Below the pieces are notes generated by a model, which worked only from the letters and a program-made list of their open reading frames with translations, had not been told where the DNA came from and searched no databases. A stretch of 64,000 nt of DNA from Ginglymostoma cirratum (Eukaryota), in assembly GCA_024137785.1 (NCBI GenBank), contig JAHRHZ010000021.1:25531200-25595199 (forward strand). The letters run 5' to 3'. Numbering within the stretch: the first letter of the stretch is position 1; each line of letters opens with the position of its first letter. Made by a program: the position numbers and the translations under genes. Positions 8,871-60,539 of this stretch are shown here, piece by piece.

Positions 8871-9287
8871 CTCAGTCCTTGAAATGGATTCCTGTTCAAT
8901 CTCAGCTCCAAAAGCATTTTGATTCAACAATGCCATGGAGCGATGTGAGATATATCTTTATATATACTGCGAGCTACTGTGCAAAAATAAAACCATATTT
9001 TGAATTCAGTACAGAAAACTAGATTATTACACTGCAGGCACATGTACAATGATATTATATACGTGAAACTGTGACAGTTAATTTCATTCTTCAGAATCTA
9101 CTCAAGTATTATATGTAGAGTTAGGTATGTAGAAAATTATTGATGGGGACAAGAATGCCATTTTGTAGATTTATCATTCTAACCTTTATTGGTTGTAGGG
9201 AAGACAAGAAGAAAAGGGGTATACGAGATAACAAGCATGGGGCTGGATGAACACAGCAGGTCAAGCAGCATTATAGGAGCAGGAAAA

Positions 9288-9321
9288 CTTGACGTTTCGG
9301 GCCTAAACCCTTCATCAGAAG
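9288..9321 (-). ncRNA. Minimal type I hammerhead ribozyme motif (mirror copy)
   Basis: Exact reverse complement of 9748-9781. Confidence 0.7.
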
Positions 9322-9334
9322 GGTTTTTTTTTTT

Positions 9335-9734
9335 NNNNNNNNNNNNNNNNNNNNNNNNNNNNNNNNNNNNNNNNNNNNNNNNNNNNNNNNNNNNNNNNNN
9401 NNNNNNNNNNNNNNNNNNNNNNNNNNNNNNNNNNNNNNNNNNNNNNNNNNNNNNNNNNNNNNNNNNNNNNNNNNNNNNNNNNNNNNNNNNNNNNNNNNNN
9501 NNNNNNNNNNNNNNNNNNNNNNNNNNNNNNNNNNNNNNNNNNNNNNNNNNNNNNNNNNNNNNNNNNNNNNNNNNNNNNNNNNNNNNNNNNNNNNNNNNNN
9601 NNNNNNNNNNNNNNNNNNNNNNNNNNNNNNNNNNNNNNNNNNNNNNNNNNNNNNNNNNNNNNNNNNNNNNNNNNNNNNNNNNNNNNNNNNNNNNNNNNNN
9701 NNNNNNNNNNNNNNNNNNNNNNNNNNNNNNNNNN
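9335..9734. other. Assembly gap (400 N)
   Basis: Run of N. Confidence 1.
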
Positions 9735-9747
9735 AAAAAAAAAAACC

Positions 9748-9781
9748 CTTCTGATGAAGGGTTTAGGCCCGAAACGTCAAG
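9748..9781 (+). ncRNA. Minimal type I hammerhead ribozyme motif of a Penelope-like element
   Basis: CTT-CTGATGA-A-GGGT(TTAG)GCCC-GAAA-CGTC-AAG: intact CUGAUGA and GAAA core, helix II, palindromic ACGT helix III, GUC cleavage triplet (C9778) and helix I CTT/AAG. Confidence 0.75.
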
Positions 9782-11440
9782 TTTTCCTGCTCCTATAATG
9801 CTGCTTGACCTGCTGTGTTCATCCAGCCCCATGCTTGTTATCTCGGATTCTCCAGCATCTGCAGTACCTTTTATCTCTGATACAAGAAAAGGGGTATGTT
9901 AGTTATTTTTTTCGAAAAAGGACGATTCTGTAATAGTGCATACTTGCTCTAGTTAGTGGAGGATACTGATAAGATTACTGATAAATGATGTAAAAGGCCT
10001 GAATATACTGCAGTTACTGATTGCTGTATCTGTAATTGATCATGGATCTGTGAAATTGTACTGTGATTGTAGCTGGGCACAGAATGAAAAACAGCACAAG
10101 ACTCTTAATACTCCTCTTAGGAATGCTATACTTATCCCATTAAATCCTAGGTACTTTGCCTTGGGGATACCTTATAGACAGTCCATTATTACAATGCCCA
10201 TAGTCAGACTTCTCAAGAGAGCTGGAAGATACTTGGTTGACAGCTGATGATTTTTGCTGTGGCAGTACCTAACTGATCTGCAAGGCCAAAAAGGTCCAAT
10301 TCTTTCTTGATAGCTTTATATCTGTATTTGCATGGAACAGAAAACATTTATTTTCCAGTGCCTTCTTCTGTTCATCAGACAAGAATGCTTACAAAGACAT
10401 GTTAATATTGGACATTCTTAGAATGCTATTCAACCTTAGCTGGATTATATGACCTCTTAAAGCAGACTGCAAAGCCAGAATGATTTGTAATGCAAAACGG
10501 AATCGACGGCCCAGATACACTTAGGATTAGAGCTCAATATATGAAAACATCTAAAGACTCTGGGCAGAAAAAGCAGACTGTGATTACTGAAACAATCAAT
10601 TACACGATGCACTCTCTCCTTGTATCACATACTTTACTTTAATGAAGCAATAATGAACAAGAAGGTATAAATTAATTGCTAATTAATGCAAGTAATTTTA
10701 CTGCATGCCAGAATTAGTTTGGGCACAAGGTGAGGCCAGGTGGTCAAACAAATCCCAAAGTGTATTCACCAGCACGCTTTATTTGTTATTCCTAATTATG
10801 GAATGACAAACTACAGCAATCATGTCAATAATGCAACATTATTCTTTGATTGACGTAAAATGACAACTAACCTAACTGGTACAGATCCAAAAATGAATAT
10901 CCTCTTTTTATCTTTTGTTTAAAAATCTACAGTGTACAATCTAGCACAAATAGCATTAGGCAATCCACAATTTGATGGTAAAGTGCTATCACTGTGATTT
11001 TTGTAGTGGCATTATACTAAAGCATATTTCGCAGTAATAAAGTAAAATTGATATAATAGTGATGTAACTTCTTGAGAAATATTACATATTCCTGTTTGAT
11101 GATCCTTTTAGAATGTTATGCTGTTTTGTTTTCAATGTCATGATTTCCATGGTGTTACACAATTTGTCTGCATGCCTAAATTATTTTGCAATATTGCCAG
11201 TTATCTCTCATCCAATTCTTCCACCACTATAGTTGGTTTGACAAATTGTGGTTCATGAATTTCTAATCACAATGAGCAAACTGATGTCCGGCAATTACGC
11301 TGAAATATTGAGAAGTACAGGAACTTAGCAAAATATCAAAAATGCAATTTAACTCAAAATCCACAACTTGGTAAAAGATGCAATATTATAATTTAATTGA
11401 TATATGACAAACTAATAGTTACTGCACTCTACAATACGTT

Positions 11441-14040: not shown

Positions 14041-14273
14041 ATAACTGAAAGAACTGCAAATGCTGTAAATCAGAAACAAAAACAGAAATTGCTGGAAAAG
14101 CTGAGCAGGTCTGACAGCATCTGTGAAGAGAAATCAGACGTAATGTTTCGGGTCTGGTGACCCTCCCTCAGAACAGTTCTGAGGAAGAGTCACTGCACCG
14201 GAAACATTACGTCTGATTTCTCTTCACAGATGCTGCCAGACCTGTTCAGCTTTTCCAGCAATTTCTGTTTTTG
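14041..14273. mobile_element. Penelope-derived fold-back element, 98-bp arms with a 1-nt spacer and degenerate hammerhead motifs at the tip
   Basis: 14077-14174 and 14176-14273 are reverse complements centred on gaac-a-gttc; right arm gtt-CTGAGGA-agagtcactgcaccg-GAAA-catt. Confidence 0.85.
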
Positions 14274-25235: not shown

Positions 25236-27412
25236 GCCAGGCTAAAGGACGGGGGCAGGTTTTCTGCAGTGTTGGATGCAGGATAGTTGGATGTAAGGGC
25301 AGAGGGTGAGTTTGACTTTGATGAAGTCAGATCCCCCAGGAAGCTCCTGCCAAACTCCACAAGCTGTACATCCATGTTACAGGGCAGCCTTAAAGATGCA
25401 CAGTAGACCTGTGCATGTCCTATTAACCCCCTTAAATCCTAATGGAGTTAGGGCTAAAAGGCTTTTGGTGGTTCATTGACAGGCCTAATTGCATGTCACT
25501 GCCAACAAGTATGATTCCCGTTTTGGGCAACTTGCTGCCGCCAGTTAAATTAGGGACAGTATTTGAGATGCTGGAAATCAGATATGACTCTCCCAGTTTA
25601 CCTGCCATCATGCTCTAAAAGTTACCATTATAACCTCATGAGTGAATGTAAATAGAAAAGATATATTAACTTTTATATATTGATACATTTTTATATTTGC
25701 AGATCATCTTCAGTGCTTCATCACTGGCAATTTACTTTAATCAAACATAGCCATTTTCTTTCTTTCGTAGGTAAAGGTTTGCCTCGAGTTTGGATTGAAC
25801 ACACAACTTTCAGTTCTGAGGTAAACACAATACCATAATTAGTAGTAAAGATGAATGAAATTAAAACAGTTACCAAAAGAATGTGAGAGCGATTAGAGAA
25901 CTCATTTTTAAACTTCCCAGTAACTGTGCTGGAAACAAAATCCAAAACAGCTTTAAAAGTGCTTGAAAAAGAAGCAATGTAGTCTGGAGAAAGGGAGAAG
26001 TAGCATTCATATGTTTACTTCATTACGGTTCATCAACTGCATTAGATGGTAGTATAAATCTGAGGGACAATGCAAGTTTAACAAACTACAAAACCTGGTA
26101 ATAGAAGTTCAAATACATTCATCAAGAGATTAGCTGTTTGAATATTTACTTTTCTATCTCTTACACATTAAAGTTTATTGAATCGTGCTGCAGACAAAGA
26201 GAAACTTTTCTCCTTTATTCTCACCTCTTTATTTTTTTCAAGAAATTATGAGGTGAATTTTGCCAGCTTCTGAACAATGTGAGCATGGATGAGTCTAAAG
26301 AAAAAATATGGAGAGATCAGAAAACTGAGATTGAGAACATTGAGAAGAAAAGGTCCAATTTTGCACCCAGTGTTTGATTGTTGAGACAAGATTTTCACTA
26401 GTGAGCAGTGAAAATCTTAGTTATATGTATTAAAATCTAATTTTACCTATTCACTTTTCAGTTACATGTAGTTTGCTATCCCCCACGTAGCAGAGAGGAA
26501 CAACATAGCAACAACTCCCAACATGAAAGTCAGAATGGATTGTTGGCAGCTCCAGCTCTACACTGACCCTCCATCTTTGCCAGCATTTCCCAGAATTGCA
26601 GGACAGGCTCTACTGGTAGCAACTGCCTGAATTTTTTGTTTATGGAGTTTGGCAGTGGACAAGCCTTGTTGCTTTATCGTAGCACTGCTGCAATTCACTT
26701 AGAATACTGTTCAATACTTCAATACAGCACTTTAGAGCACCTACATATTGCACTGTAATACTGCTGCCAGGTCACTTGAAAACACTGAAAGGCACGTTCA
26801 CAGATTAGAGCAAGGTGTATTGCACCACTTTTTGGTTGCTCTCTTAGCAGTCATTCACTTTGCACCTACTTAATTTGTTAGTACCTATACCTTGCCTTGC
26901 CTTTATGTGCCTTGCCCTCTCATTTAGAACTTGCAGCCTCACCGATCTACTGTCTTGACTTACTAATTAGTGTGGACACAAAGTGGGACAGCTTGCCATG
27001 GTTGCCACAGTGATCAGGGAAGGGATGAACATGTTGCTGTATGGCACCAGCTTATGTTAATGTCACACCTACAGCATGTATCTGCAACTTCTGTCGCAAA
27101 CATAAAGGATATGATTCAAACAAATGGCCATGTCTCAAAGCCTAAAGGAAGTAGTCCTCATTCAAGTCAAGGGGACTGGCCTCGGTATGGGGATACCAGC
27201 ACGGTAGGTCGAGGTCATCGTCTGATGTCAGTCCAGGGGCTTGGGCACAGTTAGTTGGCTGCTTGGTGTGTTCAGGGTCCTGGGTTCTGTATCCATTCCG
27301 TCAAGGCAGTAGCCCTGAGTCAGCCCTGAAGAATGACAAGGTCTCAGAAACAAAGACAGAAATTGCTTGAAAAACTCAGCGGGTTTGGGAGCATCTGTGC
27401 AGAGAAAGCAGA

Positions 27413-27448
27413 GTTAACATTTTGAGCCCAGTGACCCTTCTACAGAAC
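27413..27448 (-). ncRNA. Decayed hammerhead ribozyme motif in PLE 3' repeat
   Basis: Minus strand GTT-CTGTAGA-A-GGGTC-ACT-GGGCTC-AAAA-TGTT-AAC; core mutated, probably inactive. Confidence 0.5.
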
Positions 27449-27706
27449 TGATGGTAGTCAGGAAAAGGTTGGTATTTACGCAGAAGGTGGGGTGAGGGAG
27501 GTGGGATGGGAGAGGAGTAAACAATAAAGCGGAAATAGATCCCAAAGAGAGAGAAACACAGGCAGACAAATGCGTGGGTAAAGGTTAGCCTGGGGGAATG
27601 AATTGCCTCTAATGTGGACAATTAGTGGCTGACAGTGGGTTGTGTGTTGTAGCAGACCATGTGATGACAAGGCCTGGTGTGTGGGTAAGGACACGGGAGA
27701 AGGTGT

Positions 27707-51910: not shown

Positions 51911-53136
51911 GTGACAAAGATATTTGATGAGTGAAGAGCTGTGGATGTAGTTTATATGGACATTAGTAAGACATTTGATAAAGTCCCACAGGGCAGATTG
52001 GTACAAAAACTAAAATCACATGGGATTCGGGCTGGCTAAATGAATACAAAACTGGCTTGGTCATGGAAGACAGAGGGTAGCGGTGGAAGGGTGTTTTTCA
52101 GAATGGAGACCAATAACTAGTGATGTTCCACAGGGATCAGTCTTAGGTCCTCTGTTGTTTGTAGTATATATAAATGATCTGGAGGAAAATATGGGTGGTC
52201 TGATTAGTAAGTTTGCAGATGACATGAAGATTGGTGGAGTTGCTGACAATGCCGATGATTGTGAAAGGATAAAACAGGATATAGATAGATTGCTGACTTG
52301 GGCACAGAAATGACAGACCGAGTTTAATCCAGACAAATGCGAGGTGATGCATTTTGGAGGATCAAATTTAGGTGTGAATTTTACTGTAAATGGCAGAACC
52401 CTTAGGAACATTAACATAAAGACAGATCTGGGTGTGCAGGTCCACAGTTCCCTAAAATTGGCAACACAGGTGGCCAAAGTGATTAAGAAAGCATATGGCA
52501 TGCTTGCCTTCATTGGCCAGGGCATGGAGTACAAGAGTTGGCAAACCATTTTGCAGCTGTATAAAGCCCTTGTTAGGCCGCATTGGGAGTATTGTGTGCA
52601 GTTTTGGTCGCCACACTACCAAAAGGATATGGAAGCTTTGGAGAGAGTGCAGAGAAGGTTTACCAGGATGTTGCCTGGTCTCGAGGGCATTGGCTATGAG
52701 GAAAGGTTAAAAAGCCTAGGATTGTTTTCACTGGAAAGACGGCAGCTGAGAGGAGACCTGACAGAAGTCTACAAAATTATGAGAGGCATAGATAGGGTGG
52801 ATAGTCAGAGGCTTTTTCCCAGGGTTGGAGTTTCAATGACAAGGGGGCACAGGTTCAAGGTGAGAGGGCAAAAGTTTAAGGGAGATATGTGTGGAAAGTT
52901 TTTCACACAGAGAGTGGTAGGAGCCTGGAATGTACTGCCAGAGGAGATAGTAGAAGCAGGCACATCGGCAATATTTAAGAGGCATCTAGATGGTTACACA
53001 AAAAGGGACAGAATAGAGGGATACGGGCAGAATAAGGGCAGAAGTTTTTTTTAGTTTAGTCAGAGCATGATGATCAGCACAGGCTTGGAGGGCCAAAGGG
53101 TCTGTTTCTGCATTATACTGCTCTTTTGTTCTCTTT
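51911..53136 (+). mobile_element. CR1 (HER1-like) LINE, 5'-truncated
   Basis: RT motifs from AVDVVYMDISKTFDKVP to the 3' UTR ending ctgtttctgcattatactgctcttttgttctcttt; possible 7-bp TSD ctcttta. Confidence 0.95.
52083..53054 (+). pseudogene. CR1 ORF2 reverse transcriptase C-terminal half, interrupted by one in-frame stop (52311-52313)
   Basis: SDVPQGSVLGPLLFVVYINDL, KFADD, YKALVRPHWEYCVQFWSP, ERVQRRFTRML and TRGHRFKV; ORFs 52083-52313 and 52344-53054 share a frame. Confidence 0.93.
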
Positions 53137-59696: not shown

Positions 59697-59795
59697 GTTC
59701 GGAGAAAGGGTCACTCGACCCAAAATGTTAACTCTGATTTCTCTTCACAGATGCTGCCAGATCTGCTGAGCCTATCCAGCAATTTCTATTTTTGT
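59697..59795 (+). mobile_element. Single-arm Penelope terminal-repeat insertion starting at the hammerhead, with 18-bp TSD
   Basis: Perfect direct repeat tgtcttaaactaagctgt at 59681-59698 and 59793-59810; insert gttcggagaaagggtcactcgacccaaaatgttaac... Confidence 0.85.
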
Positions 59796-60282
59796 CTTAA
59801 ACTAAGCTGTATCTGTTGAGTAAGTTACAATAACATAAATTCAAGAAATTAATTTGAAATATATCACATTTTGGTTTCACCAGTCTGTGCACAGGTTTCT
59901 GCAAGCTGTCTGCAATATGCCACAATGTGTAGTGATTGCTCAATGAAACTGACATGTTGCAAAGCCTGAAAGAATGTGGCCAGTCACAGTGAAACGTTTG
60001 AGTTTGCAGGATTAGTTTGAAAAGCCTATAATCACAGCTTTGAGCATCAATTTCAATGTTTTGAAAGTGCCTCCAAGTGCCTTTGAGCATGCATTCCTTG
60101 CTGTCAGCCTACAGTACAGCATTTTATTTATTAGCAATCTAGATCTCTGTAGCATCAACGCAAACAGCAACCACCTTCCATGATGCCATGTGTACACCAC
60201 ATGACAGAGAAAATTGACAGAAAGTTGCAACTTGAAGGAGTGAATGGCCCCAGCGCAGGGTGTACCAGACAGAGTACTTATG

Positions 60283-60456
60283 CTTGTATCAGAGATAAAA
60301 GGTACTGCAGATGCTGGAGAATCCGAGATAACAAGCATGGAGCTGGATGAACACAGCAGGTCAAGCAGCAGGGTTTAGGCCCGAAACGTCAAGTTTTCCT
60401 GCTCCTATGATGCTGCTTGACCTGCTGTGTTCATCCAGCCCCATGCTTGTTATCTC
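60283..60456. mobile_element. Penelope fold-back element with the hairpin tip deleted, TSD-flanked
   Basis: Near-identical to 9224-9886 in the opposite orientation; TSD agagtacttatgct (60271-60284) and agcgtatttatgct (60457-60470). Confidence 0.85.
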
Positions 60457-60539
60457 AGCGTATTTATGCTACTGTGTGATGTTGGTGGAGGAATTGAAGT
60501 ACCTGAAACATCATTTCTTCATTCGTTTTCTCCCTCCAT

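Follow-up and report, generated by a model that had tools for sequence, protein, structure and literature searches.

Does the minimal hammerhead ribozyme motif at positions 9748-9781 of a 64,000-nucleotide stretch of Ginglymostoma cirratum DNA (the window, counted from its first letter) give rise to self-cleaving RNA, and what does its presence there say about the element that left it behind? An earlier description made from the letters alone (the sequence-only reading) had called it an intact minimal hammerhead, of type I, left by a young Penelope-like element (PLE), with a three-base-pair helix I, a palindrome that could serve a dimer, a mirror copy nearby and a possible cut after 9778. Its parts, numbered so that +1 is the C of CTGATGA (window 9751) and the predicted cut falls at +28|+29 (9778|9779), are as follows.

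9748-9750, plus strand: CTT, from the sequence.
9751-9758, plus strand: hammerhead core box CUGAUGA (C3-A9) with an extra A at 9758, from the sequence and PMC4209133.
9759-9770, plus strand: helix II, GGGU (9759-9762) paired with GCCC (9767-9770), with a UUAG loop, from sequence, folding and family matches.
9771-9778, plus strand: GAAA (9771-9774), the ACGU palindrome (9774-9777; forming helix III only in a dimer), U16.1 and C17 (9778), from the sequence.
9779-9781, plus strand: AAG, 3' of the predicted cut 9778|9779, from the sequence.
9288-9321, minus strand: mirror minimal hammerhead, from the sequence, the two cores lying at 9295-9318 (minus) and 9751-9774 (plus).

The letters are as the sequence-only reading gave them: the window copy carries CUGANGA, GAAA and UH with an extra residue before G10.1, three G-C pairs and one U-G pair in helix II, and the ACGU palindrome; the residue between A9 and G10.1 is called conserved in PMC4209133, the mirror copy is present on the minus strand, and a cut after 9778 agrees with what the motif layout predicts. 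The motif goes beyond chance, because its exact 31-nt form has 30,602 matches in the genome (G000) against 0 for a reversed control, and a relaxed core pattern has 135,146 against 858; the extra A is present in 219 of 221 matches of the first family. A search with Rfam models gave eight matches at E ≤ 10, none of them to a hammerhead family.

The motif is part of the pLTR, the terminal repeat, of a young, high-copy Penelope-like retrotransposon. Its full layout, recovered in two of 20 stretches fetched around the ORF start (L301 and L305), comprises a hammerhead, a tail, an ATG 166 nt after the core, an ORF with reverse transcriptase (RT), Cys linker and GIY-YIG parts, and a second hammerhead, the two motifs being spaced by ~3.55 kb (3570 nt in L301, 3546 nt in L305). 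The ORF has ~1,060 codons and is broken by a stop or frameshift in both near-full copies; the RT domain is matched by Pfam RVT_1 (E 2e-5 and 1.7e-7), the linker is C-x4-C-x2-C (CNRRKCYTC in L021 and L305), in keeping with the CX2-5CxxC pattern common to Neptune and Nematis (PMC8557442), and a GIY-YIG motif of VYCIRCTRCGFLYIG type was read by eye near the C-terminus, where Pfam gave no match; a PDB sequence search with the ORF returned 0 matches. The family also displays the pLTRs, inverted copies, one-sided 30-40 nt tail and target-site duplications (TSDs) by which EN+ PLEs are recognized, and it is an EN+ Penelope-like element whose Cys linker would mark it as Neptune or Nematis. Its youth, as claimed earlier, is borne out by 157 copies not selected by their core: they depart from the majority at ~2-3% of non-CpG positions, and 98 of them retain core, helix II and ACGU all intact. 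The dominant product of the family is a non-coding stub of 100-280 nt. Two other features of the element are recorded here: an Ala/Thr/Pro-rich low-complexity segment at approximately residues 170-300, ahead of the RT (L301:914-4111 and L305), and, between tail and ATG (L301:880-915 and further copies), a stretch TTTTAAC ... CCTCTTCTAAG|G that resembles a branch point and 3' splice site. The candidate intron end, CTTCTAAG, lies directly before the ATG, at a point that is also a frequent junction in tandem copies; no spliced joint appeared among the 15 read joints listed on L301.

At the window locus, the two motifs are the antisense arms of a single inverted insertion flanked by a TSD, not a dimer. 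The insertion is built as follows.

9209-9222, plus strand: left target-site duplication, 14 nt, identical to 9884-9897.
9224-9320, minus strand: short arm of the inverted PLE insertion, pLTR -2 to +95, without tail (blast 9320-9225, 97.9% to L301).
9321-9748, no strand: arm-arm junction, a 400-N gap bordered on either side by A11CCC, which is non-family sequence in exact mirror.
9749-9883, plus strand: long arm, pLTR -2 to +133, including the ~34-nt tail (9846-9883), by family comparison.
9884-9897, plus strand: right target-site duplication, 14 nt, identical to 9209-9222.

The short arm stops at the first TTATCTC of the pLTR and the long arm just past the second. Both arms have in common a substitution at 9797 (+47) that is rare in the family (this position is G in 9662 of 9782 first-mate-plus reads of run X23), and the letters at the edges of the junction are mirrored at 40 of 40 places; therefore, the assembler probably duplicated one arm end across the gap, unless the centre is a perfect palindrome. 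Four read runs mapped to 9735-10500 neither settled the junction nor revealed an empty site, and none of the X23 reads fell on the unique flank. Two other readings of the locus were discarded. An origin of the arms from different template RNAs (ATAATG in the plus arm, ATGATG in the minus arm) arose from a query that had picked the rare substitution, ATGATG being the family state, and a non-LTR retrozyme would consist of head-to-tail tandem units with complete hammerheads, whereas the locus holds a head-to-head pair with a TSD.

The same architecture recurs across the family. The 3' ends of 154 distinct copies are bimodal, at +88 to +99 and +125 to +133, and both classes come after a TTATCTC heptamer, the two heptamers (9838-9844 and 9872-9878 in the window) lying 34 nt apart; this repeat is a candidate signal for RT initiation. 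Among 68 head-to-head pairs, 45 join a short to a long arm, nine are long/long, none is short/short and 14 have one end outside these classes, with TSDs of at least 8 nt, mostly 12-16, in 37 of the 68. An inverted pLTR, a one-sided 30-40 bp tail and a TSD are typical of PLE insertions (PMC8557442, PMC3846280). N gaps interrupt 17 of the pairs and measure 400 N in 16 of these; at L046, L048, L148, L195, L239 and L258 the edges of the 400-N gap already hold the arm-arm junction, and the gap length at those loci probably does not represent real sequence.

Elsewhere in the window, a second fold-back insertion of the same family occupies 60284-60457, gap-free and without an intact hammerhead, its long arm (minus) starting at +49 and its short arm (plus) at +8. 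Older copies of a second hammerhead-bearing family, with 83-89% identity to L066, lie at 14074-14273 (itself a fold-back), 27348-27451 and 59697-59798. A frame fragment of a LINE-type RT at 52044-53054 (plus; Pfam RVT_1, E 3.3e-7 at 52044-52310), which we take to be CR1-like, was the one match when Pfam was run on 67 of the 94 window frames of at least 75 amino acids, and no host gene was found among these; a purine-rich stretch at 2940-2992 resembles a short coding exon of a host gene.

Whether the window copy could cleave depends on its helix I and its fold. In every copy that has upstream pLTR, ...CCCCCATTT or a close variant precedes the core, and the family helix I is AUUU/AAGU, of 4 bp with one wobble; it is shorter in sister subfamilies (AAGC, AGCC), with an overall range of 2-4 bp. 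The CUU/AAG helix proposed earlier is not the family one, for C9748 and the A11CCC preceding it are junction sequence, and the distrust that had been voiced of bases next to the gap proved well placed. At the window copy, helix I is reduced to the family UU plus the non-family C, 3 bp that are outcompeted in folding by a structure specific to this copy.

9743-9764, plus strand: 9-bp hairpin AAACCCUUC/GAAGGGUUU, specific to the window copy, from folding.

This hairpin is predicted to bury the core along with the 5' strand of helix II, although, given the junction at this copy, it may occur on one arm only. ViennaRNA, whose energies leave out tertiary contacts and proteins, gives -16.9 kcal/mol for the hairpin fold against -5.0 for a hammerhead-like fold, a pair probability of 0.0 for helices I and II, and, for two copies together, -8.3 kcal/mol for a double hammerhead against -37.9 for the best dimer fold. 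On these models the window copy is most likely catalytically dead.

Among the fetched loci are three families in which the boxes and the extra A are constant but the helices differ: helix I is, by family, AUUU/AAGU, AGUU/AACU or UCAC/GUGA, with pairing kept; helix II is GGGU/GCCC, GGGUC/GACCC or GGAGC/GCUCC, with G10.1-C11.1 kept; and the palindrome is ACGU in two families and AGCU in the third. An AGCU-or-AGGU pattern has 10,857 matches against 1,673 in the control, with AGCU in 78 and AGGU in 22 of the 100 matches listed (hand count), and in old copies of the third family the helix I pairs are often lost, with 0-2 bp left in six of 16 AGCU rows. Because the families change helices and palindrome while keeping the pairing, the fold was selected in the master elements, though not among the genomic copies. 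Among the latter, mismatches affect 50 of 1570 core and 78 of 3297 flanking positions (3.2% and 2.4%; p = 0.10), so that CUGAUGA and GAAA are no more conserved than their surroundings, an outcome that the sequence-only reading would have held against itself; equal decay of core and flank is, however, the expectation for neutral decay of dead copies.

The 5' ends of the copies bear on which RNA was inserted. Samples were drawn from the first places on contigs C1-C4 and through searches that used chosen anchors. Copies with a non-family base at -11 number 42,995, and 95 distinct 5'-truncated copies (90 of 100 places listed, plus neighbours in the same loci) were analysed. Nearly half (46) begin at -6 to -1, with 24 at +1 to +11, nine at +12 to +27, six at +32 to +36, three at -10 to -7 and five further upstream; only two of the 95 fall at +28 to +31, and there is no peak at the cut site. 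Of 30 copies picked only by their core, 15 start at -6 to -1, one starts at -13 and the other 14 extend to -80 or further. Genome-wide, 4340 copies that begin at ATTT have a G in front of it and 4884 have an A or T (47% G, against 25% in the background), and G stands there in eight of 12 sampled copies (p 0.003). Both units of six tandems at the ORF start (L302-304, 309, 313, 317) begin at -6 to -2, and in eight of the 19 rows listed for the AGCU family, whose upstream letters are different, family sequence likewise gives out immediately ahead of helix I (read by eye). We take the CCATTTC at this 5' boundary to fit the initiator (Inr) consensus. These 5' ends, the excess of G and the tandem unit starts suggest an RNA that starts at helix I and was copied capped and uncleaved. 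Such a start differs from the known layout, because the start site of D. virilis Penelope lies 46 nt ahead of an intron that ends directly at the hammerhead (PMC2377424, PMC4209133). Slippage on the element's own TGAT is another possible source of the extra G, and junctions such as ATTTCTGATTTCTGATGA do occur. PolyA run X23 placed 37,617 reads on L301:560-1460, equally on both strands and without pile-up of molecule ends, and X24 placed 11 there; in such fragmented libraries, swamped by embedded copies, a start or a cut would be hidden.

We accordingly favour, with a probability of roughly 0.7, the reading that the window motif is a pLTR hammerhead in an arm predicted to be dead, pasted from a capped, uncleaved RNA that would have started ~4 nt before the core. 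From the end statistics and the biochemistry of the Anolis element PAc, we infer a route of the following kind. The element protein would cut both target strands with a stagger of 12-16 nt, and each target end would serve as primer for reverse transcription from either of two start sites in the 5' pLTR, which are marked by TTATCTC, are separated by 34 nt and correspond to the 'tail' sites of Frangieh 2024. The RT would proceed as far as the 5' end of the RNA, near -4, where it would often add an extra G by copying the cap and would stutter or jump, after which the two cDNAs would be joined head to head. In the master RNA, the hammerhead would be active only as a dimer (ACGU:ACGU, or the two motifs of one full-length RNA), probably needing protein help, and cleavage would be dispensable for insertion and rare among inserted RNAs. 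The ribozyme is a selected feature of the master RNA, where it probably depends on dimer and protein, and a passenger in the window copy. A more far-reaching version, which we hold tentatively and at somewhat under even odds, makes the hammerhead the very first part of the capped mRNA, the 5' strand of helix I being its first 4 nt within the Inr-like CCATTTC; the 100-140 nt stubs, of which there are tens of thousands, would be run-off cDNAs of 'strong-stop' kind primed in the 5' pLTR, template jumps from that stop would give rise to the partial tandems and the inverted arms, and the ribozyme would act as a protein-gated decapping switch that sets RNA destined for translation or disposal apart from the uncleaved form used for insertion.

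The strongest form of the sequence-only reading, in which the window copy itself is active and cuts host transcripts at 9778, is very improbable. Core nucleotides, helix II and palindrome are indeed intact and a 3-bp CUU/AAG helix can be drawn, but the predicted hairpin buries the core and leaves helices I and II unpaired, the only neighbouring motif is antisense and would close a read-through RNA into an arm-arm duplex of -220 kcal/mol (ViennaRNA), and minimal PLE hammerheads showed no activity as monomers and little as dimers (PMC4209133). That reading is to be kept apart from one compatible with a dead window copy, namely that the ribozyme of the family acts in vivo on full-length or tandem transcripts, as a dimer assisted by protein, removing the capped first 32 nt or making unit-length or circular RNA, with genomic copies under-representing the cleaved form. 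The structure-preserving changes across three families, the two motifs of each full-length element and the protein-assisted cleavage shown for Anolis PAc (PMC11167929) all favour it, as do six of ~52 tandem junctions seen (hand count) that start exactly at +29, five of them after the same upstream point. Those six (e.g., L182, L190) are possibly copies of cleaved RNA or the product of microhomology with a nearby GAAGAAGTT; in a larger sample, junctions after the TAAGG point are mostly ORF read-through, and two of 100 listed join at +29. Against it, truncations at +12 to +36 (6,016 matches) show no peak at the cut, with 11 of 100 listed at +28/+29 where eight are expected (p 0.18, hand tally) and with +12, +15 and +18 equalling or exceeding those counts; helix I has just 2-4 bp, with pairs lost in the sister subfamilies; and in family-type copies the monomer fold pairs the core with CGUCA, while a double hammerhead lies ~23 kcal/mol above the best dimer fold (ViennaRNA). 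We regard this as possible, at odds nearer one in three than one in two. The family, then, may make self-cleaving RNA, its fold being selected across families, yet the 5' ends of its copies do not peak at the cut.

The -4 boundary could instead have been made at the DNA level, with no bearing on where the RNA starts, if the GIY-YIG endonuclease nicked or resolved cDNA at ATT or if A/T microhomology ended the copy at the C-rich tract. The boundary does fall on an ATT, at the A/T-rich border of an extended C-rich tract, and the PAc endonuclease prefers ATT (PMC11167929). A second A/T-rich stretch at about -22 to -35 is, however, hardly used, none of the 30 core-chosen copies ending there; the excess of G is not expected from A/T microhomology; and copies of the AGCU family, where the letters are others, break off at the corresponding structural position. 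As a full account we consider this rather unlikely, though microhomology or endonuclease resolution may contribute to the boundary.

Minimal hammerheads in PLEs, including pairs on opposite strands, are already published (Cervera 2014; PMC4209133; reviews PMC6155905, PMC6765202), for Xena, Poseidon and Neptune of fishes, and with ~4,000 copies in coelacanth and ~9,000 in Xenopus. The shark motif resembles them in its CUGANGA, extra residue before G10.1, G10.1-C11.1 pair and GAAA, in its palindromic 15.2-16.2 and short helix I, in its pLTR location, and in occurring mostly as solo truncated copies and also as dual copies 100-700 bp apart on opposite strands; it differs in a far higher copy number (135,146 core-pattern matches) and in a helix II of 4 bp and helix I of 2-4 bp. 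The main text of those reports gives no shark example, though the supplements may list some. The closest comparison in mechanism is Poseidon PAc of Anolis carolinensis (Frangieh et al. 2024; PMC11167929), whose RT start sites, 30-40 nt apart, define the tail as the distance between them, whose protein cuts and extends both strands, and whose hammerhead cleaves only with protein, is dispensable for insertion in vitro and leaves no RNA-seq ends at the cut. Unlike PAc, where the ORF begins inside stem II, the shark element has its ORF 166 nt after the core, its start sites come after a repeated TTATCTC within the untranslated portion, and its protein has a Cys linker of Neptune/Nematis type; a fixed 5' boundary before the core is not known to have been described for PAc. 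With Neptune-clade EN+ PLEs it shares the RT, CX2-5CxxC linker, C-terminal GIY-YIG, partial tandems, inverted 5'-truncated copy, one-sided 30-40 bp tail and trouble in assembling short-read genomes (PMC8557442, PMC3846280), but here the 100-280 nt stub is the dominant product, and the element is a putative member of that clade. Non-LTR retrozymes of animals are likewise non-coding, related to PLEs and endowed with type I hammerheads (PMC7229834; bioRxiv 10.64898/2026.07.22.740005), and a chondrichthyan with hammerhead retrozymes has been reported (bioRxiv 10.64898/2026.07.22.740005), but retrozymes are head-to-tail tandems capable of forming dimers and circles, in contrast to the head-to-head window insertion with its TSD and tail. 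A literature search that lay outside most subscription papers, Repbase and Dfam gave no account of this family or of a fixed 5' boundary before the core; the supplements of PMC4209133 and PMC11167929 may list such sequences.

The window copy is ordinary transposon debris, and its family matters modestly. How PLEs regenerate their pLTRs and what their hammerheads do have been called unclear (PMC2377424, PMC8557442). With more than 100,000 young copies, this genome is a natural record of the points at which an RT starts and stops. Should a capped RNA begin at the -4 boundary, the RNA that is inserted would almost always be uncleaved, and tandem and inverted pLTRs would have a simple route of formation.
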